The notes: generated by a model from the sequence alone, not told the origin. Counted from the stretch's first letter, positions 565 to 29,553 are shown. The stretch is 64,000 nucleotides of DNA from Candidatus Omnitrophota bacterium (GCA_003141835.1 PLNR01000005.1:190289-254288), one strand, 5' to 3'. Translations and numbers: made by a program.

Positions 565-1083
565 ATGAAGAACATAATATTAGTAGGATTCATGGGAGCA
601 GGCAAGACGGCGGTCGGAAAGACCCTCGCCAGATCACTCAAGAGAAAATTCGTTGACCTCGATGAGAAGATCGAGGAGCGCGAAGGTATGCCCATTTCCG
701 AGATATTCGCCAAGAAAGGCGAGCCGTATTTCAGGAAGGCCGAGAGGGAGATCGTAAAAGAAGTCTCCTCGTGCGCGGGTCTTGTTGCCGCCACCGGCGG
801 GGGCGCCGTTATCGACAAAGAGAATGTCGTTAATTTGAAATCGAACGGCATCTTATTCTATCTTGACGCATCGCCGACCAGGATCCTGGAAAGGACGAAA
901 GGCCACACCCACCGGCCCTTGCTCAATGTAAGCGATCCCAAGGAAAAGATCTACGAGCTGTTGGCGAAACGCGCGGAATTCTACGCTCAGGCTGACCACA
1001 GGATAGATACCAACAACTTGGGCGTCGATGAAGTCGCGAAAAAAATAATATCCCTGCTCAAAGAAGACGGGGAGATCTCCTGA
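565..1083 (+). CDS. aroK: Shikimate kinase
   Basis: 172 aa with Walker A GFMGAGKT and typical AroK length and layout; directly follows aroC. Confidence 0.9.
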   Translation: MKNIILVGFMGAGKTAVGKTLARSLKRKFVDLDEKIEEREGMPISEIFAKKGEPYFRKAEREIVKEVSSCAGLVAATGGGAVIDKENVVNLKSNGILFYLDASPTRILERTKGHTHRPLLNVSDPKEKIYELLAKRAEFYAQADHRIDTNNLGVDEVAKKIISLLKEDGEIS

Positions 1084-2189
1084 TGACCGAAAAAGAATTT
1101 TTGATAGTTTTGAATTGTATTCCCGACATAGGTTTTATCAGGTTTAGCAATCTGATGAAGCGCTTTGGAGCGGTTGAAAAGATATTCTCCGCCTCGAAGG
1201 CCGAATTAGAAAAAGTAGACCAGATAGGCCCGAAGGTCTCAAGCGCGATAATAAGTTGCGATAAAGATAAAACGCTCAAGGGCGAGATGAAACTTATCGA
1301 GAAGTGTAAAGTCAAAGTGATCTCTTATTTTGATAAAGATTACCCGGTTAACCTTAAGGATATTTATGACCCTCCGATTATCCTTTACGTAAAAGGGGAA
1401 TTGACGGCCGAAGATAAGTATTCTATAGGCATAGTCGGCTCAAGGCGCGCGAGTCGTTACGGCCTGCAGACCTCGGAGAGGCTTGGTTACGAATTGGCCG
1501 CTCGCGGCATGGCCGTCGTCTCGGGGTTGGCGCGCGGCATAGACGCGGCCGGCCATAAGGGCGCGCTGAAAGCAAAAGGCAGGACGATAGCCGTACTCGG
1601 TAGCGGGCTGGCGAATATCTACCCGGAAGAGCATGCCGGGTTGGCCGAAGAAATCTCAAGGAACGGCGCTGTCGTTTCGGAGTTCCCGATGGCGATGGAG
1701 CCTTATAAAGATAATTTCCCGAGGAGGAACAGGATAATAAGCGGGCTTTCGCTCGGCGTAGTCGTCGTTGAGGCCGCGAAGAATTCAGGCGCTTTGATAA
1801 CGACCGATTTTGCCCTCGAACAGGGGAGGGAACTATTCGCCGTTCCCGGACAGGCGCGCACAGCGACCGCTGCCGGGACGAACATGCTTATAAGGCAGGG
1901 CGCCAAACTCGTCGAGTCGGCAGATGACGTCATCGAAGAATTGGGTGATGTCATCAAAGGCCATATGAAGACGGAAAGGCCGGAAGAGCCGGAGCATATT
2001 CCCGAAGGGTTGGGCCGGCAGGAAGAGGATGTATTCGTGAGATTAAGCGGGACACCCGTAAATATAGATGAGATAGTGGACGGGACAGGGCTTCCCGTCG
2101 CCGAAGTGATGCACAGCCTTACCAAACTCGAGCTCAAAGGCATCATCGCGCAGCTGCCCGGAAAATCGTACGTAAGGAAAAGTTTATGA
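1083..2189 (+). CDS. dprA: DNA processing protein DprA (Smf)
   Basis: Core Rossmann region GIVGSRRASRYGL...VVSGLARGIDAAGH with a C-terminal winged-helix-like tail; classic dprA-topA synteny; start overlaps the aroK stop (ATGA). Confidence 0.9.
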   Translation: MTEKEFLIVLNCIPDIGFIRFSNLMKRFGAVEKIFSASKAELEKVDQIGPKVSSAIISCDKDKTLKGEMKLIEKCKVKVISYFDKDYPVNLKDIYDPPIILYVKGELTAEDKYSIGIVGSRRASRYGLQTSERLGYELAARGMAVVSGLARGIDAAGHKGALKAKGRTIAVLGSGLANIYPEEHAGLAEEISRNGAVVSEFPMAMEPYKDNFPRRNRIISGLSLGVVVVEAAKNSGALITTDFALEQGRELFAVPGQARTATAAGTNMLIRQGAKLVESADDVIEELGDVIKGHMKTERPEEPEHIPEGLGRQEEDVFVRLSGTPVNIDEIVDGTGLPVAEVMHSLTKLELKGIIAQLPGKSYVRKSL

Positions 2190-2386
2190 TAAAGATATGC
2201 GTTAACGGAAAAGATATCCAGGCCGATGACGGCATAACGGTCGCGAGGCTCATCTCGGACCTGAAGGCCGACGTGAAATACGCGGCCGTCGAATTGAACC
2301 TCAATATACTCGACAGGTCGAAGTATGATTCCGTTAAACTTAAAGAGGGCGACAAGGTCGAGATAATCCTGCCTGTAGGCGGCGGC
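2186..2386 (+). other. ThiS/MoaD-like beta-grasp sulfur-carrier domain ending in GGG, in frame with topA with no intervening stop or start
   Basis: 67 aa VNGKDIQ...AAVELNLNILDRSKYDSVKLKEGDKVEIILPVGGG strongly resembles ThiS family proteins including the C-terminal Gly-Gly; the next codons are AAG GGC GGC GCA CTG (KGGAL). Confidence 0.6.
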
Positions 2387-4435
2387 AAGGGCGGCGCACT
2401 GGTCATAGTCGAGTCGCCGGCAAAAGCCAAGACTATAGAAAAGTTCCTCGGTAAAGGTTACACGGTCCGCTCGTCCATGGGCCACGTGATCGACCTGCCC
2501 ATGCGGAAGATGGGCATCGACATAGAGAACAATTTCACGCCTACCTATAAAGTGATCGCTAAAAAGAAGAAACTACTCAGCGAGTTGAAGGCCGAAGCGA
2601 AGGACAAAGACACCATTTATATCGCGACCGATCCTGACCGCGAAGGCGAAGCCATAGGCTGGCACCTTGCCGGGTATCTCGGGAAGAACAAAGAGGTAAA
2701 GAGGGTCGTATTCCACGAGATAACGAAGAAGGCGATACTTGAAGCGTTCGATAATCCCGCCGAAATAGATATCAACCTGGTAAATGCCCAGCAGGCCCGC
2801 CGCGTCCTCGACAGGATAGTCGGCTATTCCTTAAGCCCGCTCCTTTGGAAGAAGATAACGCGCGGATTGAGCGCGGGAAGGGTCCAGTCGGTCGCGGTAA
2901 AACTCATAGTCGACCGCGAGCGCGAGATCCAGGCGTTCGTCCCGGTTGAATATTGGGAACTCGTAGCGGAACTCAAGAAGAAAAAAGATAAGAAATCCTT
3001 TTTCGCGCAGCTGGATAAGATAAACGACGCGAAGGCCGAAGTTAAAGATAAGGCGTCCTCGGATAAGATACTCGCGGAGCTCTCAGGCGCGAAATATACG
3101 GTAAAGGATATAAAGGAAACCGAGAAGAGGCTGAACCCGCAGGCTCCTTTCACGACCTCGAAGATGCAGCAAGAATCCTTCAATAAACTGCATTACAGGG
3201 CCGGCAAGACGATGAAGATAGCCCAGCAGCTTTACGAAGGCCTCGATATCGGGACCGAGGGCACCGTGGGCCTCATTACTTACATGAGGACAGACTCGGT
3301 AAAAGTGGCGTTCTCCGCGATAGAGGAAGCAAGGTTCTACATAAAAGACAAGTTCGGGAAGGATTATCTCCCTCCCGAAGCGAATGTATATAAGTCCAAA
3401 AAAGCCGCGCAGGAAGCCCACGAGGCGATCCGTCCGTCCTCTCCGGCCAGGGAGCCTGAGGCGATAAAACAGTATCTCACGCCCGACCAGTATAAATTAT
3501 ACAAACTGATATGGGCGAAATTCATATCGAGCCAGATGAAGCCGGCTGTAATGTCGGTCTTATCCGTGGATATCGAGGCCAATGCCTGCCTATTCAGGGC
3601 ATCGGGCTCGACCGTTATATTCCCGGGCTTTAAAGCCGCCTATGACGATGAAGAGGAAGAGAAAGATAAGAAGAAAGCTTATATCCCGAAGCTCGCCATA
3701 GGCGAGGCGGTAGACCTTATTAAACTCGACCCGACGCAGCATTTTACCAAACCGCCGGGAAGATTTACCGACGCCTCGCTGGTAAAGGCGCTCGAGGAAG
3801 ACGGCATCGGCCGCCCTTCCACTTACGCGCCCACTATCGAGACTGTCGTCGCCAGGAATTACGTCAGGCGCGAAGGCACGGCATTATGGCCCACGGAATT
3901 GGGCACGGTCGTCAACGACCTCCTGACACAGAGCTTCCCGGTCATCATAGACGAGGAATTTACCGCGAAGATGGAGGAGGAGCTCGATGAGATAGAGGAA
4001 GGCAAAGTCGAGTGGCCGCAGGCGCTCAAGGATTTCTACGGGCCCTTCTCGCAGTGGCTCTCGAAGGCCCAGGTCGAGATGAAGGATGTCAAGAAGGACA
4101 TCGAGGAGCTCGATGAGGTTTGCGAGAAGTGCGGCCGGAAGATGGTGATAAAATGGGGCCGGCGCGGCAGGTTCAAGAGTTGTTCCGGATTTCCCGAATG
4201 CAAGAATGCCAAACCCCTGGTCACGACCGGCATTAAATGCCCGGAGCCGGGATGCGACGGCGAGCTGGTCGAGCGCAGGTCCCGCCGCGGCGCGTTCTAT
4301 GGTTGTTCCCGCTTCCCCACCTGCAGGCATGTGGAAAATAAGCCGAAGCCTTCGCCAGAAGGCGAGGCGCAATCCCTGCCCTCAGGCAGGGACAAACCCG
4401 AAGAAGAGCCCAAGCCCACGGAGCCGCAGCCTTGA
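2186..4435 (+). CDS. topA: DNA topoisomerase I with C-terminal zinc ribbons; ORF as read includes the N-terminal ThiS-like extension
   Basis: LVIVESPAKAKTIEKFLG Toprim start, catalytic region, and two C4 zinc-ribbon motifs (CEKCGRK...CSGFPEC; CPEPGCDG...CSRFPTC). Confidence 0.9.
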   Translation: MIKICVNGKDIQADDGITVARLISDLKADVKYAAVELNLNILDRSKYDSVKLKEGDKVEIILPVGGGKGGALVIVESPAKAKTIEKFLGKGYTVRSSMGHVIDLPMRKMGIDIENNFTPTYKVIAKKKKLLSELKAEAKDKDTIYIATDPDREGEAIGWHLAGYLGKNKEVKRVVFHEITKKAILEAFDNPAEIDINLVNAQQARRVLDRIVGYSLSPLLWKKITRGLSAGRVQSVAVKLIVDREREIQAFVPVEYWELVAELKKKKDKKSFFAQLDKINDAKAEVKDKASSDKILAELSGAKYTVKDIKETEKRLNPQAPFTTSKMQQESFNKLHYRAGKTMKIAQQLYEGLDIGTEGTVGLITYMRTDSVKVAFSAIEEARFYIKDKFGKDYLPPEANVYKSKKAAQEAHEAIRPSSPAREPEAIKQYLTPDQYKLYKLIWAKFISSQMKPAVMSVLSVDIEANACLFRASGSTVIFPGFKAAYDDEEEEKDKKKAYIPKLAIGEAVDLIKLDPTQHFTKPPGRFTDASLVKALEEDGIGRPSTYAPTIETVVARNYVRREGTALWPTELGTVVNDLLTQSFPVIIDEEFTAKMEEELDEIEEGKVEWPQALKDFYGPFSQWLSKAQVEMKDVKKDIEELDEVCEKCGRKMVIKWGRRGRFKSCSGFPECKNAKPLVTTGIKCPEPGCDGELVERRSRRGAFYGCSRFPTCRHVENKPKPSPEGEAQSLPSGRDKPEEEPKPTEPQP

Positions 4436-5304
4436 TAGACAGATACGTTGAGAAATTCATAAGATATCTTGAGATCGAGAGGAACGCTTCGAAGTATACC
4501 CTCATTAATTATTCGGTCGACCTCAAATCGTTGAGCGAATTCCTCAAGGAAGAGCCGATAGAGAAGGTCGATTACGTCTCCCTGCGCCGGTACCTGGCGC
4601 ACGTAAAGGAACAGAACCTGTCGAAGGTATCGATCGCGCGCAAGATCGCCTCGATAAGGTCTTTCTTCAAGTTCCTCTTCAGGGAAGGGATAATAAAGAA
4701 CAACCCTGCGTCGTCGTTGTCGACGCCTAAACGCGACAAGCACCTCCCGAAATTCCTGGACGAGAAAGAGATAGTCCTGCTCCTTGAGTCTCCGGAGAAG
4801 GAGGGCGAGGCCGGCCTAAGGGACAGGGCGATACTCGAGACGCTTTATTCCACAGGCATAAGGGTAAGCGAACTCGTCGGCCTTAACATGGACCACATCG
4901 ACCAGATAGGCGGGATCATAAAGGTCTTCGGCAAGGGCAAAAAAGAGAGGATCGTGCCGATAGGCGAGAGGGCGCTGCAGGCGATAAGGGATTACCTTAA
5001 GTTCCGCACTTCCAAGGAAGTGCGGGAGAAAGCCCTCTTTTTTAACAAGAACGGCGGCAGGCTCACCGACAGGTCCATAAGAAGGATAATAAATAAATAT
5101 ATAACGAAGGCGAGCATACAACAGAAGATATCGCCGCACACCCTGCGCCACTCTTTCGCCACGCATATGCTCGACCACGGCGCGGACCTAAGGAGTGTGC
5201 AGGAGCTTCTCGGCCACGCCAACCTGTCCTCGACCCAGATCTACACCCATATAACTACCGAAAGGCTGAAGTCCGCGTATACGAAGGCGCACCCGCGGGC
5301 TTAA
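4432..5304 (+). CDS. xerC: Tyrosine site-specific recombinase, XerC/XerD family
   Basis: N-terminal SAM-like domain plus C-terminal RHSFATHMLDHGADLRSVQELLGHANLSSTQIYTH catalytic motif; TTG start overlapping the topA stop. Confidence 0.8.
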   Translation: MIDRYVEKFIRYLEIERNASKYTLINYSVDLKSLSEFLKEEPIEKVDYVSLRRYLAHVKEQNLSKVSIARKIASIRSFFKFLFREGIIKNNPASSLSTPKRDKHLPKFLDEKEIVLLLESPEKEGEAGLRDRAILETLYSTGIRVSELVGLNMDHIDQIGGIIKVFGKGKKERIVPIGERALQAIRDYLKFRTSKEVREKALFFNKNGGRLTDRSIRRIINKYITKASIQQKISPHTLRHSFATHMLDHGADLRSVQELLGHANLSSTQIYTHITTERLKSAYTKAHPRA

Positions 5305-6591: not shown

Positions 6592-7673
6592 GCGAAAAGA
6601 TAAGGCGGTATTTTTATTCGTTAATGACCGATGAGGCTCAAGGCCCGGCAGCAGCTGCCATGAAGCTGCTCCTTTACGGGCTTTCATTTGATTACGCCTC
6701 TGTCCTGGCGGTCACGAAATTCCTTTTTAGAAAAGGGATCGTCAGGCCGTACCGTCCCAAATGCAAGGTTATCAGCGTAGGGAATATAACGCTGGGCGGG
6801 ACGGGAAAGACCCCTTTGACCGTGGAGATAGCGCGCAGGTTCACGGAAAAAGGGAAGAAAGTCGTGGTCCTTACGAGAGGTTACATGAAGGACAAGAATA
6901 CGGGCGTGGCCGATGAAGCCGAGGTCTTTAAAAGCCTGCTTAAGGGTGTTCCCGTCCTCGTGGGGCGCGACAGGATAGCGTCCGCAAAAGAGGCCGAGAA
7001 GAAATACTCGCCCGATATTATATTGCTCGATGACGGTTTCCAGCACTGGCGGCTCGAGAGGGATATCGACCTGGTCGCGGTCGCGGCCGACAACCCTTTC
7101 GGCAACGGGAAATTGATTCCCAGGGGCATCCTGAGGGAGCCGGCCTCGGCGCTCAAGAGGGCAGATATCATCGTTGTGACGAAAGTCCTCCCGGAAGAGG
7201 CGAGCCAGGGCAGGGCAGAGATATTAAAGGACAGGATAAAAAAAATAAATCCAGGCGCCTCGGTATTCAGCGCTTCGTACCGGCCGCAGCGCCTTTATGA
7301 CGCGGAGGAGGGCTCGGAGGCTGCGATCGATTGCCTGAACAACAAGGCGGTAGCGCTTTTATGCGCCATCGGCGACCCGGCTTCTTTCGAGGATACTGTC
7401 GTATCGCTCGGCGCGAATATCGCCGCGGCTTATTTTTTCATGGACCACCACATCTTTTCTTCCAGGGAGATCGGGAAGATCGTCGCCGAGTGCAAGGCTA
7501 AGCGCATAGATACGATAGTGACTACCGAGAAGGACCTGCCCCGCCTGAGGCAGTCAGGCGCAGCGTACCGGGGATCGGGAGTGAAGATATTGGCGTTGGC
7601 GGTGGAGATAAAAATAGATAACGAGGAAGGATTTTTTGGGAGACTGGATACTTTATCTACTCGTAAGGCTTGA
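6588..7673 (+). CDS. lpxK: Tetraacyldisaccharide 4'-kinase
   Basis: VISVGNITLGGTGKTP P-loop characteristic of LpxK; start overlaps the waaA stop. Confidence 0.85.
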   Translation: MSEKIRRYFYSLMTDEAQGPAAAAMKLLLYGLSFDYASVLAVTKFLFRKGIVRPYRPKCKVISVGNITLGGTGKTPLTVEIARRFTEKGKKVVVLTRGYMKDKNTGVADEAEVFKSLLKGVPVLVGRDRIASAKEAEKKYSPDIILLDDGFQHWRLERDIDLVAVAADNPFGNGKLIPRGILREPASALKRADIIVVTKVLPEEASQGRAEILKDRIKKINPGASVFSASYRPQRLYDAEEGSEAAIDCLNNKAVALLCAIGDPASFEDTVVSLGANIAAAYFFMDHHIFSSREIGKIVAECKAKRIDTIVTTEKDLPRLRQSGAAYRGSGVKILALAVEIKIDNEEGFFGRLDTLSTRKA

Positions 7674-9564
7674 GGCGTCGTTATTCCGCCTGCTTCCGCT
7701 TAGGCTTTCCCTCTGGATGGCCGGGCGGTTCGGGAGCCTCATATATTATACGATGGGCAGGCGTAAGACCGTCGCTTACGCCGGCCTGCGCGCCGCGTTC
7801 AGGGGCAGGTATACGCCGGCGCAGGCGAACCGCATAATAAAAGAGATATACCAGAACCTCGCGCAGTCTTACATAGAACTCCTGAAATTCCCGCAGTTCG
7901 ACGACGCCTACGTCAAAAAATACATCAAGATAGAAGGCCTCGAGAAGGTAAAGGCTGCGGTGAAAGAGGAAGAGAGGGGAGTCATCTTCCTCACCGCGCA
8001 TTTTGGGAACTGGGAACTGTGCTCATTGACCGGTTCGACTATGGGCTTCAAGATGAACGTGCTGGCGCGTTTCCAAAAACTCAAGAGGCTCAACGGCTAC
8101 CTGAACAAGATGCGCGGCTCGAAGGGCGCCAACGTCATATTCAAGGACGACGCGATCGCCGAGACGATAGACGCGTTGAAGAGACACGAGGCGGTAGGCA
8201 TCCTGTCCGACCAGGACGGCGGCAAGAGGGGCGAGTTCGTTAATTTCCTCGGGCGGCCCGCGTCGACCCCGAAAGGGGTGGCGCATTTTTCATTGAGGAC
8301 GGGCGCGCCGGTATTTCCCGTCGCTATAATCCGCGAAAAAGGCCCTTACCACAGGCTCGTGATAGGCGATGACATATCAGTCATGCCGTCCGGGGATATA
8401 AAGAAGGATATCCATGAGATACTCCAGAGGTTCGCCGATTCCCTTTCGAAATATATCGAGAGATATCCCGGGCAATGGCTATGGCTGCATAAGCGCTGGA
8501 AATCCACCCCCGCCAGATATATCCTCGTATTAAATGACGGCAGGGCCGGACATTTCAAGCAGTCCCGTGCCCTTGCCGGCGCCATTAGGAAAGCGCGCGC
8601 GGAAAGAGGTTTTTCCCAGGAAGACACGGTAATAGGGACGGTCGATGTCAAATTCAAGAACGGCTTCGCGAGGGCGGTCTTCGATATAGGTTCGTTCCTC
8701 GGGTTCGGCATCCACAGCCTGTCATGCTGTTTCCCGAAGGAAGTATACGATAACCTTAGGGCGGCTTACGCGGATTACGTGATATCATGCGGCGCATCGC
8801 TCGCCGGCGTCAACCTCGCTTTTAAGAGAGAGCTCGGCGCAAGGTCGGTGGTCATCATGAAACCGAATATATTCAATATAAAGGATTTTGACCTCGCGGT
8901 CATTCCGGTCCATGACAAAGTGGGAGCGTCAGGTAACGTCGTCTTCACCAAGGGCACTGTGACTGGCCTAGACGAAGATTCCCTCCGCGAATACGGGGAG
9001 AAACTTAAAAAGCGGGTCGCCGTGGACAAGGGCAAAGTCCTCGGAGTGCTGCTGGGCGGAGATTCCAAGTCTTACACATTCGAGAAGGAACTGGCGATAG
9101 AGGTTGTCGACCGGGTCATGGCCGCGGCCGCGGATATCGGCGCCGACGTGCTCATAACGACCTCAAGGAGGACGTCGCACGCGGTCGAGTTCGCGCTGAA
9201 GGAGCGTTACGGTAAGTCCGAGAGGGTTAAACTCCTCCTGGTCGCGAACGAAAATAATTTCGAAGGGGCGGTCGAGGGGATCCTCGCGCTCTCTGACATG
9301 ATCGTCGTCTCGGGAGAGTCGGTCGCGATGGTGACCGAAGCCGTGAGTTCCGGGAAACCCGTATCGGTATTCATGCCGCAAAAGACTAATAAATTTTCGG
9401 GAACGAAACAGGAGGAATCCGTGCGCAACCTGGAAAAGGAAGGGTTGCTCGTGGTTAATGCGGATATTGCTGCTGATATAAGACAGCGCATTAACCACAA
9501 ACAGGCCGATATATTAAGCGGGGACATGAAAGCTATCCGGGCCGGGCTGGAAAAGATACTATGA
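7636..9564 (+). CDS. Bifunctional protein: N-terminal LpxL/HtrB-type lipid A acyltransferase fused to a C-terminal ELM1/DUF1022-like predicted glycosyltransferase-fold domain
   Basis: N-terminal ~300 aa has the LPLAT motif HFGNWEL and the C-terminal YPGQWLWLHKRWK typical of LpxL; the C-terminal ~340 aa begins VLNDGRAGHFKQSRALAGAI, resembling bacterial ELM1-family proteins. Confidence 0.6.
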   Translation: MGDWILYLLVRLEASLFRLLPLRLSLWMAGRFGSLIYYTMGRRKTVAYAGLRAAFRGRYTPAQANRIIKEIYQNLAQSYIELLKFPQFDDAYVKKYIKIEGLEKVKAAVKEEERGVIFLTAHFGNWELCSLTGSTMGFKMNVLARFQKLKRLNGYLNKMRGSKGANVIFKDDAIAETIDALKRHEAVGILSDQDGGKRGEFVNFLGRPASTPKGVAHFSLRTGAPVFPVAIIREKGPYHRLVIGDDISVMPSGDIKKDIHEILQRFADSLSKYIERYPGQWLWLHKRWKSTPARYILVLNDGRAGHFKQSRALAGAIRKARAERGFSQEDTVIGTVDVKFKNGFARAVFDIGSFLGFGIHSLSCCFPKEVYDNLRAAYADYVISCGASLAGVNLAFKRELGARSVVIMKPNIFNIKDFDLAVIPVHDKVGASGNVVFTKGTVTGLDEDSLREYGEKLKKRVAVDKGKVLGVLLGGDSKSYTFEKELAIEVVDRVMAAAADIGADVLITTSRRTSHAVEFALKERYGKSERVKLLLVANENNFEGAVEGILALSDMIVVSGESVAMVTEAVSSGKPVSVFMPQKTNKFSGTKQEESVRNLEKEGLLVVNADIAADIRQRINHKQADILSGDMKAIRAGLEKIL

Positions 9565-11663
9565 AGATAATATATATAATACCAAGGCTTAATCCGGGCG
9601 GCGTGGAGCTGGGTGTGGTCGATTACTCCTCGAGGATGGTAAAACTCGGCCACAATATCGTCGTCATATCCAACGGCGGGGAGTTGCTAAGGCAGCTCGA
9701 GGCCAACGGCATAAAACATTATACCCTCCCGGTCCACAGCAAGAACCCGCTGACCGTCCTCAGCATGATACCGGCGGTCAGGAAAATACTGGTGCAGGAG
9801 AAGGCCGATATCCTGAACGCGGAGAGCAGGGTCCCGGCGATAATAGGTTATTACGCGGCGCGGAGCGCCGGCGTCGTCTTCATCACTACCTGCCACGCAT
9901 ATTATTCGAAGAAGCCATTAAGTTTCAGCAAGGTCATGGGCTGGGGCAAGCTCGTCATCGCTGTAAGCCAGGTGATAGCCAAGCACATGATAGACAATTT
10001 CAACGTCCCGTTCCGCAGGATAAGGCTCGTCTACAGGGGCGTTGATGTCGAGAAATTCAAATACAGGGAGCCGGACGAGTCGGTAAAACATGAATATACG
10101 ATAGGCATAGTAGGCAGGCTGACGCCGATAAAAGGGCATAAATATTTCATACGGGCGGTATCGAAAGCGGTAAAATACGTCCCGCGCATCAAGGCCCTCA
10201 TCGTGGGCGATGCCCCGCCGGAGAAGGAGAAGTACAAACAGGAGCTTGAGAGTCTTGTGAACAGGCTCGGCCTCTCCAGGTATGTAGAATTCCTCGGCGG
10301 CAGGAGCGATATCCCGGACATCCTCGCCAGGCTCGACCTCCTCGTCATGGCGAGCATAGTGCCTGAGGGGTTCGGCAGGGTCGTGGTGGAAGCGTTCGCC
10401 TCCGGCGTGCCGGTAGTTGCGACCGGCGTGGGCGGGGTCATGGAGATAATGAGGGACGGCGAGAACGGGCTTATCGTCCCGCCGGAAGACCCGCAGCCTA
10501 TGGGCGATGCGATCGTGAGGCTGCTGAAGGACCGTAAATTCGCCAGGGAGATCGCGCAGCGCGCCAGGAAAGACGTCGAGGAGAGGTTCAATCTTGACAG
10601 GCTGATAACCGAGACGTTGAGGGTATACGAGGAGGCGCTCGAGGTAAAAAGGATACTTATAATAAAGATAAGCGCCGTCGGCGACTGCGTCCTCGCCACG
10701 CCTTCGATCCGCGCCATCCGCCGTAAATATCCAAAGGCATATATCGCGCTGCTGATAGGCAGGGTAGAGAGCCAGGCGCTTAAGGGATGCCCGTATATCG
10801 ACGAGATGATAATATATGACAGGGAAGGCAGGGATAAGGGATGGCTCAGGTTCTTCGAACTGGCCGCCGAGGTAAGAAGGTACGGCTTCGAGGAAGTGGT
10901 CGACCTCCAGAACAGCTCAAAGAGCCACCTCTTCGCTTTCCTCAGCGCGGCCCCGCACAGGTACGGATACAGGAAAGGGAAATACTGGTTCCTGCTTAAC
11001 AGGACTATAGGGGAAGCCAAAGGGCCGCTCGCGCCGGTAGACCACCAGTTCAGGGTGTTGTCGATGATGGGCATCGAGGACGCGCCGAAGAAACTCGAGC
11101 TCTGGCCTTCGGCCGCGGATATTGAAAATGTAAAAAATATGCTTGATGCGGAGTGGGTGGGCGAGAACCAGACGCTCATAGGGATAAATCCGTCGGCGAG
11201 CCCGCGCTGGGCCACTAAAAAATGGCCCGCCGAGAATTTCGCGAGGCTTTGCGACCTGCTGGGCGAGCGGGAGATCAGGACCGTCCTCATAGGCGGCAGG
11301 TCTGAAGCCGACGCGAAGGCCGCGGCCGATATATTATCGCTCGCGAGGTCGAAGCCCATAAACCTGGCCGGGAGGACGTCGCTCCCCGAACTCGCGGCGC
11401 TCGTGAAAAGGTTCAAGTGCCTCGTTACAAGCGACAGCGCGCCTATGCACATGGCTGCTGCCATGTCTACGCCTTTTGTGGCGCTATTCGGCCCGACCGA
11501 TCCCGACCGCCACCTGCCGCCTTCGGGAAATTGCGCGGTCGTAAAGCGGGAGTTAGGGTGTTCGCCGTGCTATAAACCTGTATGTTCGGATATAAGGTGC
11601 ATGAGGGAGATAACCGTGGAAGACGTGTTGAAAGCGATCGACGGGGTGATGTCGCCGAAATGA
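9561..11663 (+). CDS. Fusion glycosyltransferase: N-terminal GT4 (GT-B, EX7E-type) domain plus C-terminal GT9 ADP-heptose:LPS heptosyltransferase domain
   Basis: N-terminal 360 aa with GT4 features (…SIVPEGFGRVVVEAFASGVPVVATGVGG…); C-terminal ~340 aa begins RILIIKISAVGDCVLATPSIRAI and carries the GT9 C-terminal TSDSAPMHMAAAMSTPFVALFGPTDP motif. Confidence 0.75.
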   Translation: MKIIYIIPRLNPGGVELGVVDYSSRMVKLGHNIVVISNGGELLRQLEANGIKHYTLPVHSKNPLTVLSMIPAVRKILVQEKADILNAESRVPAIIGYYAARSAGVVFITTCHAYYSKKPLSFSKVMGWGKLVIAVSQVIAKHMIDNFNVPFRRIRLVYRGVDVEKFKYREPDESVKHEYTIGIVGRLTPIKGHKYFIRAVSKAVKYVPRIKALIVGDAPPEKEKYKQELESLVNRLGLSRYVEFLGGRSDIPDILARLDLLVMASIVPEGFGRVVVEAFASGVPVVATGVGGVMEIMRDGENGLIVPPEDPQPMGDAIVRLLKDRKFAREIAQRARKDVEERFNLDRLITETLRVYEEALEVKRILIIKISAVGDCVLATPSIRAIRRKYPKAYIALLIGRVESQALKGCPYIDEMIIYDREGRDKGWLRFFELAAEVRRYGFEEVVDLQNSSKSHLFAFLSAAPHRYGYRKGKYWFLLNRTIGEAKGPLAPVDHQFRVLSMMGIEDAPKKLELWPSAADIENVKNMLDAEWVGENQTLIGINPSASPRWATKKWPAENFARLCDLLGEREIRTVLIGGRSEADAKAAADILSLARSKPINLAGRTSLPELAALVKRFKCLVTSDSAPMHMAAAMSTPFVALFGPTDPDRHLPPSGNCAVVKRELGCSPCYKPVCSDIRCMREITVEDVLKAIDGVMSPK

Positions 11664-23291: not shown

Positions 23292-23358
23292 ATTTAATTG
23301 GAACGAGTTAGCAATTTAAAAAGTCGTAAAAAAGCAGCCCTTCTTACAAGGAGTGTTG

Positions 23359-25056
23359 ATGCCGAAGGGAGAGAAGAAGTCTCTTGGCGAAGCCCTGGTA
23401 GAACGCGGCCTTGTTACTCCCGAAAAACTCAAGAAGGCGAAGGATGAGGCCGACAGGGCAAAAGAGCCGCTTCGCCGCGTCCTGATAAGGCTGGGCATGG
23501 TCGAAGAGGGTGCGATCATATCCTTTTTCGAGCAGCAGCTCGGCATCCCGCGCATAGATTTTTCGAATTATCTCCTGGATCCCAAAGTCGTCGATATCCT
23601 GCCCGAGAATTTCTGCAGAAAGAACATGATCATCCCGGTATTCAAGATAGGCGGGACGCTGACCATCGCCATGGTGGACCCGCTGGATATCTTTGTCCTC
23701 GACGAGGTCCGCCTTAAGACCAAATGCGAAGTAGAGCCGGTCGTTGTCCATGAGAGGGACCTCATCAGGATCTTCGACCAGTATTACGGCGCGCGGGGCA
23801 CGATGGACGACATCGTAAAATCCCTCGATAAGGATAAATTGCAGATAAAAGAGGGCGCAGAGACCGACATCAAGACGCTGCAGGGGCTCGTCGAGGAAGC
23901 GCCGATAGTAAAGCTCGTCAACCTCCTGATAAGCGAGGCGATAAAGGCAGGGGCCTCGGATATACACATAGAACCCGATGAGCTTTCCCTTGGGACGAGA
24001 TACAGGGTGGACGGCGTCCTCCATGAGGTGACTTCCCCGCCGAAGGACCTCCAGTCGGCGATAATTTCAAGGATAAAGATCCTCTCGGGGATGGATATCG
24101 CGGAGAGGAGGGTGCCCCAGGACGGCAGGTTCCAGCTGAAGATCGAGAATCGCCAGATAGACTGCAGGGTTTCCACCATTCCCACCGTTTACGGCGAAAA
24201 TGTGGTCATAAGGCTCCTCGACCTGAACAGCATACTTTTGGGGCTGAGCGACCTCGGTTTCTCCAGCGAGATGCTTCCGGTATATGAGAAACTTATACGC
24301 AAACCTTACGGCATAATCCTCGTCACCGGCCCGACCGGCTCCGGCAAGACGACCACGCTCTACTCCTCGTTAAGCACCATAAATTCACCGGAAAAGAATA
24401 TCGTGACGATAGAGGACCCGATCGAATACAGGCTGAAGCTCGTCCGGCAGATGCAAATAAATACGAAGGCCGGGCTCACCTTCGCGAACGGCCTGCGTTC
24501 CATCCTGCGGCAGGACCCGGATATCATAATGGTCGGCGAGATCCGCGACCTTGACACCGCCGAGATCGCGATACAGGCGGCGCTCACCGGCCACCTCGTG
24601 TTATCCACGCTGCATACCAATGACGCCCCCGGCGCGATCGCGCGCCTCGTGGATATGGGCGTCGAGCCGTTTTTGGTCAGCTCATCGGTCTCGGCCGTCA
24701 TAGCCCAGAGGCTCGTCCGCGTAATATGCAAGGATTGCAGGGAGAACTACGTCCCCTCCGCGAAATTATCGGAGGAGGTGGGCCTGTCATCATCCAAACA
24801 GGTAAAATTTTACCGCGGCAAAGGCTGCGATAATTGCCTGCACACCGGGTATAAGGGGAGGGTCGGCATATTCGAGTTGATGCTGCCCGACGACGTCATA
24901 AGGACGCTTACCGTCGCAAAATCCTCTTCCACCGAGATACGGAAGGCCGCTATCAAGGCCGGGATGAAGACGATGCAGCAGGACGGCATAGAGAAGGTCA
25001 AGGCCGGGATCACGACCTTGGAGGAAGTCTTGCGGGTCACCCAACAGGAAGAATAA
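23359..25056 (+). CDS. gspE: Type II secretion / type IV pilus assembly ATPase (GspE/PilB family) with N-terminal MshEN-like domain
   Basis: Walker A VTGPTGSGKTTT, Asp box, Walker B and tetracysteine CKDC...CDNC; N-terminal LGEALVERGLVTPEKLKKA...RLGMVEEGAIISF resembles the GspE-N/MshEN domain. Confidence 0.9.
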   Translation: MPKGEKKSLGEALVERGLVTPEKLKKAKDEADRAKEPLRRVLIRLGMVEEGAIISFFEQQLGIPRIDFSNYLLDPKVVDILPENFCRKNMIIPVFKIGGTLTIAMVDPLDIFVLDEVRLKTKCEVEPVVVHERDLIRIFDQYYGARGTMDDIVKSLDKDKLQIKEGAETDIKTLQGLVEEAPIVKLVNLLISEAIKAGASDIHIEPDELSLGTRYRVDGVLHEVTSPPKDLQSAIISRIKILSGMDIAERRVPQDGRFQLKIENRQIDCRVSTIPTVYGENVVIRLLDLNSILLGLSDLGFSSEMLPVYEKLIRKPYGIILVTGPTGSGKTTTLYSSLSTINSPEKNIVTIEDPIEYRLKLVRQMQINTKAGLTFANGLRSILRQDPDIIMVGEIRDLDTAEIAIQAALTGHLVLSTLHTNDAPGAIARLVDMGVEPFLVSSSVSAVIAQRLVRVICKDCRENYVPSAKLSEEVGLSSSKQVKFYRGKGCDNCLHTGYKGRVGIFELMLPDDVIRTLTVAKSSSTEIRKAAIKAGMKTMQQDGIEKVKAGITTLEEVLRVTQQEE

Positions 25057-25058
25057 AT

Positions 25059-26273
25059 ATGCCCCTCTATCGCTATAAGGCAAGAGACGGGATGGGAAAA
25101 CTGGTCGAAGGGGTCATGGAGGCCCCGGCCGAACCCGATCTCGTGGAAAAGCTGCGCAAGATGGGATATGTGATAACCGGGGTTTCGGCCGCCTCCGACA
25201 AGTTCTCTATCGGGGAATTCCTAGGCGGGTTCAGCAGCATAAATCCCGAAGACATGATCTTTTTTAATATACAGTTATCGAATATGCTCGATGCGGGATT
25301 ACCTCTTTTAACCTCGCTGCGCACCATCTCAGCGCAGACGGAGAACAGGACGCTGAAGAAATTACTCGAAGACGTCACGTTAAAAGTCGAGACCGGCTCT
25401 TCCCTGTCCGAGGCGCTTATGGCCCACCCGATGACTTTTTCGAGGCTTACGATAAGCATGGTCAAGGCTGGGGAAGCGAGCGGCAACCTGGGCCTTGTAT
25501 TGAAGAGGCTTGCCGATTTCGGCGAGAGCGAACTGGACCTCAGGCAGAAGGTCAGCGGAGCGTTATTATATCCCGCGGTCCTCTCCGTAGCCGCGACAGC
25601 AGTAATATTATTCATAGTGACGTTCATCATACCGAAGTTCGCGGACATATTCGTCAGGGCCAATATCCCGCTCCCGTTTGTCACGCGTATCCTCTTCGGT
25701 GCGGGGATGACGATAAAGGACTACTGGTACATTTTCGTCCTCGGTGCGACGGCATTATTCCTGGCCGCGCGGATATACGTTAATACCCGCGGCGGGCGTT
25801 TCAGGTTCGATGCCCTTAAACTCGCCATCCCGGTGGTCGGGCCGCTCATCCGCAAAGCGTCCATAGCGAAGTTCGCCCGGATGTTGTCCACCCTTTCGGC
25901 CAGCGGCGTGGATATACTCGAATCGTTGGAGATACTTGAGGTGACTATCGGCAATGAGGTCCTGTCGCGCGTGGTCGTGAAAGTGCGCGACGCGGTGCGC
26001 GGCGGCAGCAAGATATCCGAGACGCTGAGAGTGAGTGCGGAGTTCCCTCCGGATACTGTCCAGATGATCGCGGCAGGCGAGGAGACCGGCAACCTTGACG
26101 TCATGTTGAACAAGGTGGCCGATTTTTATGAGGCGGCCGTCGCTTACAATATAAAAAGGCTCACGTCCCTTCTCGAGCCGGCATTTTTGTTGATAATGGG
26201 TTGTGTCGTGGCCGTCATCATGGCTTCGATATTGGTACCGATGTTCGATCTGGTAAAAGTGTTAAGAAGGTGA
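25059..26273 (+). CDS. gspF: Type II secretion system protein F / PilC inner-membrane platform protein
   Basis: 404 aa, two GspF repeats with three TM segments; directly after the ATPase. Confidence 0.85.
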   Translation: MPLYRYKARDGMGKLVEGVMEAPAEPDLVEKLRKMGYVITGVSAASDKFSIGEFLGGFSSINPEDMIFFNIQLSNMLDAGLPLLTSLRTISAQTENRTLKKLLEDVTLKVETGSSLSEALMAHPMTFSRLTISMVKAGEASGNLGLVLKRLADFGESELDLRQKVSGALLYPAVLSVAATAVILFIVTFIIPKFADIFVRANIPLPFVTRILFGAGMTIKDYWYIFVLGATALFLAARIYVNTRGGRFRFDALKLAIPVVGPLIRKASIAKFARMLSTLSASGVDILESLEILEVTIGNEVLSRVVVKVRDAVRGGSKISETLRVSAEFPPDTVQMIAAGEETGNLDVMLNKVADFYEAAVAYNIKRLTSLLEPAFLLIMGCVVAVIMASILVPMFDLVKVLRR

Positions 26274-26350
26274 TGGTTGATGTATATGCATCAACCAGAA
26301 TAGTAGATGTTAGCCATCTACTATGAGTGGTAGATGTTCACCATCTACCA
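26274..26350. promoter_or_regulatory. Three tandem 9-bp-arm palindromes (half-site T[GA]GT[TA]GATG) in the gspF-pilin spacer
   Basis: tggttgatg-tatatg-catcaacca (26274-26297); tagtagatg-ttagc-catctacta (26301-26323); tggtagatg-ttcac-catctacca (26328-26350); centres ~27 bp apart. Confidence 0.6.
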
Positions 26351-26371
26351 TCAACAAAAGGAGGAAGTAAG

Positions 26372-26830
26372 ATGAGGAAGGGGTTTACGCTTGTAGAACT
26401 TCTTATCGTCATCATGGTCATCGCGATATTGATAGGCATCGCGCTGCCGAGGTTCGGGGGTATGCGCGACGAGGGCAACACGACCAAGGCTGCCGCGGAG
26501 TTGAGGACATTGCAGGCCGCGGTCGAGTCGCGGTATATGCACACCAACCCGCATGCTTACCCGGTAGCCGGTGGTACCTGGGAGACAGCGTTGACGTTGA
26601 CGACGGTCGTGCCGCAGATAATCGGCGCTCCCCTGTATGACCCGTTCGGCGCTAACTCGACGACGCAGTACAGATATGCGCTCAACGGCGCATATTATGT
26701 CATATGGTCTCTCGGGCCCAACAGGACGTCCACGATAACCGGCATCAGCGCCACAGGAACGGTGGCCCCGGCCGCTACAGGCGACGACATATTCGTCTCG
26801 AACGGCACGCCTGGTTCGGGAGGTTTTTGA
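26372..26830 (+). CDS. gspG: Major pseudopilin / type IV pilin (GspG-like), prepilin-type N-terminal cleavage/methylation domain
   Basis: MRKGFTLVELLIVIMVIAILIGIALP class III signal; strong RBS AAAGGAGGAAG upstream. Confidence 0.85.
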   Translation: MRKGFTLVELLIVIMVIAILIGIALPRFGGMRDEGNTTKAAAELRTLQAAVESRYMHTNPHAYPVAGGTWETALTLTTVVPQIIGAPLYDPFGANSTTQYRYALNGAYYVIWSLGPNRTSTITGISATGTVAPAATGDDIFVSNGTPGSGGF

Positions 26831-26833
26831 CCT

Positions 26834-27202
26834 TTGTTCAAAGTCGGCGCGCGCGGTTTTACGCTGATAGAGATCCTGATCGTGATCGCTTTTTTTGCGG
26901 CAGGCGCGGTAGTCCTTTTGCAGATATTCAGCATGGGGCTTTACGGCAGCGTCGATAATGAGAATACCATGATAGCTACCGCGCTTGCGCAGGAGAAGAT
27001 GGAAGAGATGCGCAATGAGCCTTATACCTCGATAGTGCCCGAGGTACGCGCGCAGGTCCCGAATTATACCTCCTTTGACAGGGAGATACTGGTCACCGCG
27101 CCGGTATCTAACCTTAAGCAGGTGACGGTCAATATCTACTGGAACGGGAAGACCGGCGACGTGAAGATATCATTGGTTACGTATGTATCGAATATCATTT
27201 AA
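26834..27202 (+). CDS. Minor pseudopilin (GspI/PilV-like), prepilin-type N-terminus; TTG start
   Basis: GFTLIEILIVIAFFAAGAV N-terminal methylation motif; 122 aa. Confidence 0.65.
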   Translation: MFKVGARGFTLIEILIVIAFFAAGAVVLLQIFSMGLYGSVDNENTMIATALAQEKMEEMRNEPYTSIVPEVRAQVPNYTSFDREILVTAPVSNLKQVTVNIYWNGKTGDVKISLVTYVSNII

Positions 27203-27704
27203 GGGCAGGCCGGGTTTTACCGTAGCGGAGCTTATAATCGCTTCGGCGCTCGTATCGGTCTTGATGGGCGCCATACTGATAACTTTCGTTATCGGGCTGA
27301 AGATATGGGGCTCGGAAATGACGAGGACCGCTTTCATAAAAGATATCTCTTATAGCATGCAGGTCATATCTGAGGACCTGAGGCAAGCGACTTCTTTTGT
27401 CCCGGTCACAAACAGGAACAGGATAGGTTTCCTCGCGGATGTCAACGGGGACGGTTCTCCCGAGACTGTCCGGTATAGCGTCGCCGGCGGAAATCTCCTG
27501 CGCACACAAAACGGCACCGCGACGCCTGTCCTGGCAAGGAACGTGCAGGCCATTACGTTCAGGTATTACAGGCCCGACGATAACATTAACCCGATGGGTG
27601 TTGTGAACCGGGCGCAGATAAGGGTCGTCGAGATAGATCTCGTGCTGACGAACGGGAGCGAGTCCATGCAATTCACTACCAGGGTCAGGCCGAGGGGGAT
27701 ATGA
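27183..27704 (+). CDS. Minor pseudopilin (GspJ/PilW-like), prepilin-type N-terminus
   Basis: GFTVAELIIASALVSVLMGAIL motif; 173 aa. Confidence 0.6.
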   Translation: MYRISFKGRPGFTVAELIIASALVSVLMGAILITFVIGLKIWGSEMTRTAFIKDISYSMQVISEDLRQATSFVPVTNRNRIGFLADVNGDGSPETVRYSVAGGNLLRTQNGTATPVLARNVQAITFRYYRPDDNINPMGVVNRAQIRVVEIDLVLTNGSESMQFTTRVRPRGI

Positions 27705-28117
27705 GCAGACGCGGTTTTGTGTTGATAATGACATTTATATTTATGCTGGCCCTTGCGGCCATAGCAATGGTTACGCTCTCGCTCGTCTCATCCAATACGA
27801 GGTTCACGGGATCCCAGCTTGACGGAACAAAGGCGCTATACCTGGCGCAAGCCGGGATTGAAAGCGTATTAAGGAGCGTCCGCGACGGGCACACGCCGCC
27901 GTCACTGCCTCCGGCCATAACGCTCGGGGACGGGACGGTGGAATACCTGTCGGTAGGCTTTCCCGCTCCGAATACATTAAACATAGACCTGCTGGGCAAG
28001 ATCCCGGTTGATTCCTCATCGGGAAAAGAGATAAAAGCGCACGTAGTCGCAGTTTATTCGGACACAGGCAACGGCAAATTTACTACCTGCGCTTCCTGGA
28101 AAGAGAATTACGAATGA
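27701..28117 (+). CDS. Minor pseudopilin (GspK/PilX-like)
   Basis: RRGFVLIMTFIFMLALAAIAMVTLSLVSS...ALYLAQAGIE, typical of the PilX/GspK N-terminus. Confidence 0.55.
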   Translation: MSRRGFVLIMTFIFMLALAAIAMVTLSLVSSNTRFTGSQLDGTKALYLAQAGIESVLRSVRDGHTPPSLPPAITLGDGTVEYLSVGFPAPNTLNIDLLGKIPVDSSSGKEIKAHVVAVYSDTGNGKFTTCASWKENYE

Positions 28118-29553
28118 TGAACTTTAAGAAAAAAGATACCTATATCGGGGTAGATTTCGGTTTCTCTGCGATAAAGGCCGTCGAGATAGAAGCCGGTCCG
28201 GCCGGAGAACTCATTTTAAAGAGGGCGACCCTCGTCCCGAAAGAAGAAGGGGTAAAGAAGGCCGTTGCCGGAATGCCCGTAAGATCGGCCAGGGTCAATG
28301 TCGTCGCAGATTGCCCGGAAGGCTGCCTGCGCTATTTCACGCTCCCGAAGATGTCGGACCGGGAGATACCCGAGGCGGTTAGGTGGCAGGTGAAAGAGAA
28401 GGCATCCCTTCCGCTTGACGAGCTCCTTATGGATTATAAACTGCAGGATATCGTTGAGGCCGGCGTAAGCAAATACAAAGTAAAACTGGCCGTGATGCCG
28501 GCAAAGTCCGTTGACGGCGTCGTAAGGCTCATGGGCGAGGCGGGCATCAGCCCGGTCGCCCTCTTCCCGCCGCCGCTTGCCATAGAAAAACTTTCGGGCC
28601 GCATGGGCCTGAAACGGGACGAGACCGTTGCGATCGTGGATATCGGGAATGACAGTACCGGGATAAATATCATAAAGGGTAACTCCCTTGTTTTTGCAAG
28701 GAAGGTCAATCCGGGCGGCGCGGCGATCACCAAAGACCTTAACCGCCAGGCGGCGGAACGGCTGGTCCGGGAGATCGAGAGGTCATTCCATTACTATGGT
28801 GACGAATCATCCGGTGACAAGGTCAGGTCGCTCATCCTTACAGGAGGCGGCGCGGCGATCAAAGGGCTGGCCGGGTTTTTACAGGAGAACCTCGGTGTCC
28901 CTGCCTCGGAAGGCGATCCTTTTAAGGGGATCACTTTGGAAAAGGGCGCGCTCGCCGATCCGGCATGGCCGGCCGGAGCCTTCGCCAATGCCATAGGCGC
29001 TGCTTTAAGCGAAGGACGGGGGATCAATCTCCTGCCTCCGGAATTGAAACAAAAGACTATACGAATGTTCGAGAAGGCCGCAGTCGAGTCGGTAATAGCG
29101 GCGGTGGCCGTTTCCCTGGTCCTCTCTTTTATCGGCATCAGGATGCAACTCTCCAACTATGATAAGAAGATAGCTTACGCGACGGGAGAACTGACCGCCA
29201 TGAAGCCGCAATTGGAGATAGCTGCCCATTACGAGCGCATGGCCAGGGAGCTCTCCGAAAGGAATGCGTTCGTCTATTCGGTCTCCTCAGGTATCCCGCC
29301 GTGGAAAGAGGTGCTGAAGGAGCTTAGTAACAGGCTCCCGAAATACGCGGTCCTCTCGGGCCTGAAGGCGGACGCGGGTAGTTTAGAGATAAACGGCCAG
29401 GTCACAGGTGACGTAAAGGACCGCGAAAAAGCCCTATCCGGCATCATAAAGTCGCTTGAGGGAGGCATGTTCAAGAACGTGACGCTCGTGAACGCCAAGA
29501 TGGGCGAGGGCACGAATTCAAATACGGAGTTCGATATAAAATGCTCGTTCTGA
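28114..29553 (+). CDS. pilM: PilM-PilN fusion (actin-like ATPase-fold assembly protein fused to a bitopic PilN-like segment)
   Basis: N-terminal ~330 aa PilM/GspL-like (IGVDFGFSAIKAVEIE...), then a TM (VIAAVAVSLVLSFIGI) and a coiled-coil PilN-like C-terminus. Confidence 0.7.
   Translation: MMNFKKKDTYIGVDFGFSAIKAVEIEAGPAGELILKRATLVPKEEGVKKAVAGMPVRSARVNVVADCPEGCLRYFTLPKMSDREIPEAVRWQVKEKASLPLDELLMDYKLQDIVEAGVSKYKVKLAVMPAKSVDGVVRLMGEAGISPVALFPPPLAIEKLSGRMGLKRDETVAIVDIGNDSTGINIIKGNSLVFARKVNPGGAAITKDLNRQAAERLVREIERSFHYYGDESSGDKVRSLILTGGGAAIKGLAGFLQENLGVPASEGDPFKGITLEKGALADPAWPAGAFANAIGAALSEGRGINLLPPELKQKTIRMFEKAAVESVIAAVAVSLVLSFIGIRMQLSNYDKKIAYATGELTAMKPQLEIAAHYERMARELSERNAFVYSVSSGIPPWKEVLKELSNRLPKYAVLSGLKADAGSLEINGQVTGDVKDREKALSGIIKSLEGGMFKNVTLVNAKMGEGTNSNTEFDIKCSF

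Follow-up and report, generated by a model that had tools for sequence, protein, structure and literature searches.

ThiS-type sulfur carriers act through a free C-terminal Gly-Gly carboxylate, which a ThiF/MoeB-type enzyme adenylates before it becomes a thiocarboxylate. Ubiquitin-like (Ubl) proteins ending in Gly-Gly can, however, also be made with further residues behind the two glycines. In ubiquitin-eL40 and ubiquitin-eS31, the Ubl is placed head-to-tail on an unrelated, essential housekeeping protein and is freed by a Ubl-specific peptidase that recognizes the Ubl and not its partner, while in the QbsE/QbsD system of thioquinolobactin formation only one or two residues past Gly-Gly are removed before adenylation and a gene for a JAMM peptidase resides in the same cluster. 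As far as bacterial DNA topoisomerase I (TopA) is concerned, the additions known to us are C-terminal DNA- or chromatin-binding modules. Here, we describe an open reading frame (ORF) from a Candidatus Omnitrophota bacterium (GCA_003141835.1, contig PLNR01000005.1) in which a complete ThiS is fused in frame to the N-terminus of a complete TopA. The ORF occupies positions 2186-4435 on the plus strand of a 64-kb stretch of DNA that was analysed as a whole and is termed the window in the following.

The MoaD-MoaE fusions, e.g., MoaX and the Deinococcus radiodurans protein DR2607, likewise carry a ThiS/MoaD-family protein at the N-terminus with its Gly-Gly buried at the junction, and their activity depends on proteolytic exposure of the C-terminal glycine, in Deinococcus by a JAMM/MPN+ enzyme (PMC4326299; PMC8832034). 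Specifically, cleavage is required for activity of MoaX from Mycobacterium tuberculosis (PMC4326299), the cut made by DRJAMM exposes the Deinococcus protein's C-terminal Gly, and HvJAMM1 cleaves linear SAMP1 fusions (PMC8832034). The MoaD-MoaE proteins differ from ThiS-TopA in that the carrier is joined there to its own catalytic counterpart from one and the same pathway, whereas TopA is an unrelated essential DNA enzyme, and in that cleavage is known there but only proposed here. ThiS-ThiG and ThiS-ThiE fusions feature the same TIGR01683 family at the N-terminus and a GGG followed by a linker of about 6-20 residues (P0267, P0292, P0357, P0379, P0359). No published study on their processing was found, and their partners are thiamin-pathway enzymes, whereas TopA has no known link to thiamin. 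The ubiquitin-ribosomal protein genes bear a formal likeness to ThiS-TopA, including the coupled expression of both parts, but ubiquitin is a protein modifier operating with E1-E2-E3, whereas ThiS is a sulfur carrier by sequence, and neither conjugation nor a chaperone effect on the partner is indicated for ThiS-TopA. The extension of QbsE is comparable to the tails of 1-22 residues on certain separately encoded Omnitrophota ThiS proteins (see below), whereas in ThiS-TopA an enzyme of 682 residues takes the place of the 'extension' and a peptidase gene is lacking in the vicinity. Finally, the Chlamydia TopA/SWI-domain fusion (NCBIfam NF004966) likewise combines a whole TopA core with a lineage-specific domain; a description of an N-terminal ThiS or Ubl addition to TopA was not found.

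The ORF encodes a single protein of 749 amino acids (aa) consisting of ThiS (residues 1-67), a four-residue linker and an entire bacterial TopA, and its frame is uninterrupted until the stop codon at 4433-4435. The ThiS domain (codons 1-67, 2186-2386, plus strand) reads MIKICVNG...EIILPVGGG and is identified as a beta-grasp sulfur carrier by TIGR01683, PF02597, matches to the Protein Data Bank (PDB) and AlphaFold2. Residues 4-67 span the thiS equivalog TIGR01683 from position 1 to 64 of 64 (64.3-66.7 bits vs. a cutoff of 37.45) and also match Pfam PF02597 with 42.7 bits; E-values of 1e-17 to 1e-18 against the curated models over the whole model length lie far beyond chance. Solved ThiS structures were matched by sequence as well (2k5p/3cwi, 2lek, 1tyg_B). 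The domain ends in Val64-Gly65-Gly66-Gly67, and Gly66-Gly67 align to the final two residues of Bacillus subtilis ThiS (PDB 1tyg_B, ...VHFVGGG), so that ThiS is complete to its final glycine. Codons 65-67 (GGC GGC GGC, 2378-2386, plus strand) thus contain the canonical C-terminal Gly-Gly of ThiS, here in an internal position, and the proposed cleavage would take place behind Gly67.

The linker Lys-Gly-Gly-Ala (KGGA; codons 68-71, 2387-2398, plus strand) is devoid of a start codon, and codon 72 (position 2399) already begins the first Toprim strand, LVIVESPAKAK. In a scan for in-frame ATG, GTG and TTG, no start codon was detected between Gly67 and the TopA core; the nearest ones upstream of LVIVESP, a GTG at codon 30 and a TTG at codon 37, lie within the ThiS fold. 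An internal translation start for TopA was ruled out because no start codon exists beyond codon 37, and TopA can thus be translated only through ThiS. Both observations of the initial annotation on this region, a near-textbook ThiS with Gly-Gly in the first 67 codons and the lack of a stop as well as of an ATG or GTG ahead of LVIVESPAKAK, are therefore borne out. A promoter-like or terminator-like site was not found at the thiS-topA junction. The ATG of the fusion shares the sequence ATGA (2186-2189) with the stop of the preceding gene dprA, which implies translational coupling, and is preceded at a distance of 6 nucleotides (nt) by a Shine-Dalgarno-like AAGGAA (2174-2179, plus strand); comparable purine-rich motifs stand ahead of the fusion start in the distant loci L087 and L088. 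In GC content, the ThiS part is the same as the neighbouring genes, and a recent horizontal insertion of thiS was rejected on this basis. As translated, ThiS has no free C-terminal Gly-Gly since 682 further residues follow in frame without a stop, and such an end is attainable only via proteolysis.

The remainder of the protein is an ordinary TopA. Residues 72-677 match TIGR01051 topA_bact at 812.6 bits (cutoff 456.4; model positions 1-630 of 632) and comprise a Toprim domain with Glu76 and Asp149-x-Asp151 (residues 72-179, 2399-2722, plus strand; PF01751, 83.5 bits) and a Topoisom_bac core with the motif GLITYMRTDS including Tyr366 (residues 194-614, 2765-4027, plus strand; PF01131, 421.5 bits), the latter modelled with a predicted local distance difference test (pLDDT) score of about 90. 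Two C4 zinc-ribbon domains (residues 644-715, 4115-4330, plus strand; PF01396 in two stretches, 83.4 bits) and a disordered Pro/Glu/Lys-rich C-terminal tail with the stop codon (4331-4435, plus strand; pLDDT below 50 for residues 723-749) complete the enzyme. Among 62 fusions, no variation occurs at E76, D149, D151, Y366, R368 and the cysteines C646/649/666/672 and C685/707/713. As established for TopA enzymes, Glu76 and Asp149-x-Asp151 are catalytic, and Tyr366 is the expected active-site tyrosine.

The identical 749-aa protein is encoded on five contigs, the longest of which (ERZ27254250 k141_397642) comprises 443 kb, and is present in NCBI, ENA and Logan. GCA_964642015.1 is another assembly that carries the fusion. 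Among the 120 best TopA homologues, 64 share the order of ThiS, Toprim, Topoisom_bac and zinc ribbons at 55-97% identity. These fused homologues stem from many independent assemblies (NCBI, JGI, ENA, Logan), and all those with a named source are listed as 'type I DNA topoisomerase [Candidatus Omnitrophota/Omnitrophica bacterium]', the Omnitrophota being a phylum in the PVC group. Further fused sequences, P0399 (758 aa, 51% identical) and P0276, were present in a representative library clustered at 50% identity; this library carries no taxonomy, and it was N-terminal fragments that surfaced there while full-length fusions sit inside TopA clusters. The linker comprises 4-23 aa across the fusions, four being the commonest length, and about 50 aa in P0276. 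In the fused relatives it is variable, rich in Ala, Ser, Gly and Lys and free of start codons, and its initial residue is never Pro. Linker length varies among lineages while the reading frame is always maintained. The identities of the ThiS domain and of the TopA core co-vary (r = 0.93), and both parts have thus been inherited together.

Two explanations had been put forward in the initial annotation, i.e., loss of a stop or start codon through sequencing error or recent mutation on the one hand and a genuine Ubl-TopA fusion, with ThiS possibly released by a protease, on the other. An error of sequencing or assembly between separate thiS and topA genes might be invoked because a minority of relatives indeed possess both genes separately and because a 713-nt contig (L090) from a near-identical strain encodes a ThiS of 72 aa (P0002). 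This contig, however, is near-identical to the window up to the GGCGGCG of the glycine codons and unrelated thereafter (about positions 640-713), which suggests that its assembly turned chimeric at the GGC repeat and thereby created a spurious ORF; P0002 was consequently rejected as a separate ThiS. The same fusion occurs on five contigs, upwards of 64 diverged homologues that were sequenced and assembled independently carry it as well, and the frame stays constant despite lineage-specific linker lengths. An artefact thus has next to no probability, and the first of the two explanations is refuted. The many diverged homologues of identical architecture support the second: judged from these sequences, the gene fusion is genuine, anciently fixed and vertically inherited, and, as far as sources are named, it has thus far been encountered solely within a portion of Candidatus Omnitrophota.

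Relatives of the window exhibit three states at this locus, all in the common chromosomal setting aroC-aroK-dprA-X-xerC-waaA-lpxK. The gene for DNA-processing protein A (dprA; 1083-2189, plus strand; Pfam DNA_processg_A with 261 bits and DprA_WH) is the upstream neighbour in all relatives, and downstream follows a gene for a xerC-type tyrosine recombinase (4432-5304, plus strand), the TTG start of which overlaps the topA stop and which is conserved in L082, L083, L087, L088 and L089. The first state, the fusion, is found in the window as well as in L087 and L088, the TopA parts of which are 56-61% identical to that of the window, and the order aroK-dprA-[thiS::topA]-xerC-waaA-lpxK is retained in deep relatives. 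In the second state, dprA-thiS-topA, the genes are split (P0150-P0157, 68-73% identity) and topA possesses a start of its own (M-K-K-S-LVIVESP); assemblies with this arrangement are GCA_964625025.1 and GCA_964641235.1. The split ThiS of L083 ends in GGGNRII and its gene shares an ATGA overlap with the topA start, that of L082 carries 22 residues behind GGG, and P0241 ends in GGGI. All split ThiS proteins pass TIGR01683 and run 1-22 residues past GGG, and because of these residual tails they look like products of secondary fission. In the third state (L089, L011) thiS is absent and topA directly follows dprA.

In a rough tree of TopA cores (neighbour-joining with midpoint rooting), the split clade is nested in the fused clade of the window, beside the fused P0147. 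Fused sequences form no fewer than five separate clades, between which unfused ones are interspersed. The simplest reading of these sequence relationships is an old fusion that was later followed by fission in one lineage and by several losses, independent fusions being also conceivable on so rough a tree. A separate short ORF at this position in relatives had been named in the initial annotation as an observation that would speak against a fusion. Such ORFs do exist in the L082/L083 sub-clade, while the fusion itself stands in view of the nested position of this clade and the residual tails. With a ThiS hidden Markov model (HMM), thiS was found near none of 80 control topA loci, mostly from other phyla, with up to 10 kb of flank searched on each side. 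These loci originated from a scan with residues 1-130 that was dominated by the VESPAKAK pattern of ordinary topA, and their lack of thiS indicates that the thiS-topA linkage is specific to this group.

With regard to sequence conservation, the fused domain displays all characteristics of free ThiS up to the terminal Gly-Gly. Gly66 and Gly67 are kept in all 66 fused sequences and Gly65 in 64 of them, N7, G8, N38, D56 and E59 are likewise invariant, and TIGR01683 is matched at E <= 0.001 by each of the 62 fusions scanned. Per-column conservation correlates with that of 67 standalone ThiS proteins ending at Gly-Gly (r = 0.91), a similarity that is somewhat inflated as these are the best matches to this very ThiS, and both sets share N7, G8, E36, N38, D56, E59 and G65-G67 as positions that are invariant or nearly so (at least 54 of 67). 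In the representative library, identity to a wide range of free ThiS proteins of 65-75 aa amounts to 40-50%. The closest standalone homologue found (53% identical) is encoded in a thiS-thiG-thiE operon of a Nitrospiraceae member, and a word-indexed search with the 67-aa ThiS alone returned three candidates, both new ones residing in Nitrospiraceae-type thiSGE operons. By sequence, the fused domain is thus a mainstream thiamin-type ThiS. Comparison of its codons with those of the near-identical strain L090 revealed 12 differences, two of them nonsynonymous (both Asp to Glu), and a ratio of nonsynonymous to synonymous substitution rates (dN/dS) of 0.049, which indicates strong purifying selection on the ThiS part. 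The conservation pattern says that selection of the ThiS type, including that on Gly-Gly, still acts on the fused domain, while the linker is free to vary.

A functionless remnant, i.e., a neighbouring thiS that became fused to topA by loss of its stop codon and is tolerated while decaying, is difficult to reconcile with these numbers. Stop loss in a gene pair overlapping by 4 nt is mechanistically easy, split relatives show precisely such an ATGA overlap, and other two-domain fusions exist in the same gene run. Nevertheless, the dN/dS value, the passing of the equivalog by 62 of 62 fusions and the retention of the invariant residues where TopA cores share only 51-60% identity render this explanation highly improbable.

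An AlphaFold2 model computed from a 62-sequence alignment, evaluated by per-residue confidence only, displays residues 1-62 with pLDDT values of 84-92 and with the strands (2-6, 9-13, 34-37, 40-42 and 57-61) and the helix (19-25) of a beta-grasp. Residues 63-68 (P-V-G-G-G-K) drop below 50 between two confidently modelled domains, and Gly-Gly is accordingly predicted to lie in a flexible, exposed connector. Sequence and model taken together, the arrangement fits the released-precursor type, in which an N-terminal Ubl has its Gly-Gly right at the exposed junction with the partner. We favour, at about even confidence, that ThiS is synthesized as the N-terminal portion of a precursor, from which a cut behind Gly67 would free it and leave TopA. 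Such a cut would account most parsimoniously for the conservation pattern, and it is likely because ThiS chemistry needs a free Gly-Gly carboxylate. By analogy, the polyprotein would be cut by a Ubl-specific peptidase, for which the JAMM/MPN+ type constitutes the best precedent. The freed ThiS would then serve thiazole synthesis via ThiG or, as proposed for Omnitrophota, Thi4, and the cut would also yield a normal TopA with four extra N-terminal residues. TopA would be a passenger that provides constitutive, coupled expression and no partner in sulfur chemistry, and the split ThiS proteins with their 1-22 residues past GGG could be trimmed by the same activity.

C-terminally blocked ThiS proteins appear to be widespread, as evident from ThiS-ThiG (P0267, P0292, P0357, P0379, P0331) and ThiS-ThiE (P0359) fusions and from the short tails that are common among metagenomic ThiS sequences. 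Of the 150 best ThiS representatives (P0241-P0389), about half extend 1 to more than 60 residues beyond Gly-Gly, e.g., with GGGS, GGGSH, GGGR or GGGNG, which implies a widespread ThiS trimming activity unless many of the tails are gene-calling artefacts.

Several points weigh against a released ThiS. Neither thiF, thiG, thiH, thi4 or moeB nor a gene for JAMM, DUF6775 or another peptidase was found in about 82 kb of the 443-kb contig (the window plus 10-kb flanks), as already noted for thiF, thiG and thiH in the initial annotation, and the same holds true within 10 kb of the distant fused loci L087 and L088. In none of the searched loci is the fusion in the company of thiF or thiG (or of thi4, thiH or thiO), and the ThiS HMM detected no second thiS in the window. 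Among 176 complete Omnitrophota genomes only 38 contain thiG (bioRxiv 10.64898/2026.06.07.730766), and the canonical acceptor ThiG may be missing here. The split ThiS ORFs have not gained a stop right after Gly-Gly, which is equally expected if a free carboxylate is irrelevant. The resemblance to standalone ThiS is inflated to some degree by the choice of the comparison set (see above), and we infer the cleavage itself from sequence and analogy.

On the other hand, almost all of the same 176 genomes possess thiC, thiE, thiL and iscS (bioRxiv 10.64898/2026.06.07.730766). Hanson and colleagues noted that 'suicide' Thi4 genes, including those of two Omnitrophica metagenome-assembled genomes (MAGs), cluster with thiS, thiF and the gene for DUF6775, and the representative genomes of their study, including the Omnitrophica MAG bin.255, lack ThiG (bioRxiv 10.1101/2025.09.23.678117). 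This suggests that ThiS thiocarboxylate is able to feed Thi4, and because thiS and thiF accompany the Thi4 genes of Omnitrophica, a ThiS-dependent thiazole route appears plausible in the phylum even without ThiG. DUF6775, which is described as exhibiting motifs like those of metal-dependent peptidases and which is found next to Thi4, thiS and thiF more often than any other family, Omnitrophica MAGs included (bioRxiv 10.1101/2025.09.23.678117, Table S3), could be a candidate for the peptidase that processes the ThiS C-terminus. Where thiamine biosynthesis is ascribed to more than 75% of Omnitrophota genomes, this is based on module M00127, which is defined as thiC plus hydroxymethylpyrimidine (HMP) kinase only and leaves the thiazole branch (thiG, thi4, thiS, thiF) unscored (PMC10066038). 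As leads rather than statistics, two complete KEGG orthology (KO) lists of Omnitrophota genomes are available, both without thiG and thiF (Seymour et al., 2023). One Omnitrophota genome of this KO table contains thiS, topA, K21029 and K21140 and lacks thiG, thiF and thiH. In KEGG, K21029 stands for a MoeB-type E1 and K21140 for a Mec-type JAMM hydrolase, the latter being a weak lead to a peptidase.

According to the main rival explanation, ThiS is never removed. As a permanent accessory domain, the ThiS beta-grasp would carry no sulfur and would form an N-terminal module of TopA, acting, for example, as a docking surface for partners, as a regulator of Toprim or as a folding or solubility aid in cis. 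Genes for a peptidase, an E1-like enzyme or a thiazole synthase are absent near all loci examined and most complete Omnitrophota genomes lack thiG, as would suit such a module. The thiS-topA linkage, moreover, survives fission in the form of overlapping or adjacent ORFs, the split ThiS proteins retain tails beyond Gly-Gly, and the commonest linker of just four residues keeps ThiS near the first Toprim strand. Still, Gly66-Gly67 are invariant (66 of 66) while surrounding residues and linker vary freely, and all fusions pass the ThiS equivalog with conserved positions as in free ThiS, whereas an exapted domain released from its contacts to ThiF and to ThiG or Thi4 would be expected to drift where TopA identity goes down to 51-55%. 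In addition, the connection is disordered in AlphaFold2 (again by per-residue confidence), and many TopA lineages of Omnitrophota that are interleaved with fused ones have lost or simply lack ThiS, from which it follows that TopA does not need ThiS. We consider a permanent domain about half as likely as release for thiazole synthesis.

Release of ThiS for a purpose other than thiamin synthesis has also been considered, i.e., for another sulfur transfer or as a ubiquitin-like protein modifier akin to TtuB, SAMP and Urm1, with proteins of DNA metabolism as possible targets. The lack of thiG in most complete Omnitrophota genomes, the location between dprA and topA unconnected to thiamin genes, and the one genome with thiS, topA, K21029 and K21140 but without thiG, thiF and thiH would agree with such a role. 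However, the domain is an ordinary thiamin-type ThiS, as its 53% identity to a ThiS from a thiSGE operon illustrates, a source of thiazole is needed in a phylum where thiC, thiE and thiL are nearly universal, and conjugation machinery was not seen; a role outside thiamin synthesis thus appears improbable. Equally speculative and of small likelihood is the idea that ThiS-TopA corresponds to the eukaryotic ubiquitin fusions in function as well as in form. ThiS would then act in cis on TopA as a folding or assembly aid or as an inhibitory Toprim cap, and DNA topology would become coupled to the sulfur or thiamin status when a Ubl peptidase removes ThiS or a ThiF-type E1 engages it; alternatively, released ThiS would double as a protein modifier. 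Release of a thiamin-type ThiS by a cut after Gly67 remains the reading that we prefer.

All genes called in the 64-kb window are located on the plus strand, and many neighbours overlap by 4 nt. Two further fusions are encoded downstream in the same gene run (both plus strand). The one at 7636-9564 links a lipid A acyltransferase (PF03279) with an Elm1-like domain (PF06258), and the one at 9561-11663 combines a GT4 glycosyltransferase and a GT9 heptosyltransferase. Both are conserved in L082, L083, L087 and L088, and gene fusion appears to be frequent in this lineage. The window also contains aro and ilv genes, a cluster for the lipopolysaccharide core, a type IV pilus/type II secretion system cluster (23353-30525), lon, clpP, tig, genes of the methylerythritol phosphate (MEP) pathway and rimP-nusA-infB. 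The 728-aa protein encoded at 61599-63785 (plus strand) is without an entry in the precomputed Pfam annotation of the contig but is an ordinary translation initiation factor IF-2 according to a direct scan (IF2_N, GTP_EFTU and IF-2 domains).

A full-text search combining ThiS or beta-grasp with topoisomerase or Toprim, in which 'ThiS' is inseparable from the word 'this', yielded no paper on the ThiS-TopA architecture, and the proteins are already contained, unremarked, in public databases as 'type I DNA topoisomerase'. The new element is the N-terminal fusion of a sulfur carrier with an unrelated essential DNA enzyme as partner, and its significance hinges on the cleavage step. If ThiS is cut off, an essential housekeeping enzyme of a prokaryote would be made as a polyprotein with a ubiquitin-fold carrier, an arrangement otherwise known from eukaryotic ubiquitin genes. 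The logic of a Ubl-fusion precursor and a Ubl-specific peptidase would then cover an unrelated partner in addition to fusions within one pathway, such as MoaD-MoaE, which would bear on the evolution of ubiquitin-type processing out of sulfur-carrier systems. Should ThiS stay attached, topoisomerase I would have acquired a bona fide ThiS as one of its domains, a recruitment for which no precedent was found. For the Omnitrophota, the fused, split and absent states provide a convenient clade marker within the phylum, and annotation of the fusion as 'type I DNA topoisomerase' can cause pathway reconstructions to miss thiS and to misjudge thiamin autotrophy in these bacteria.

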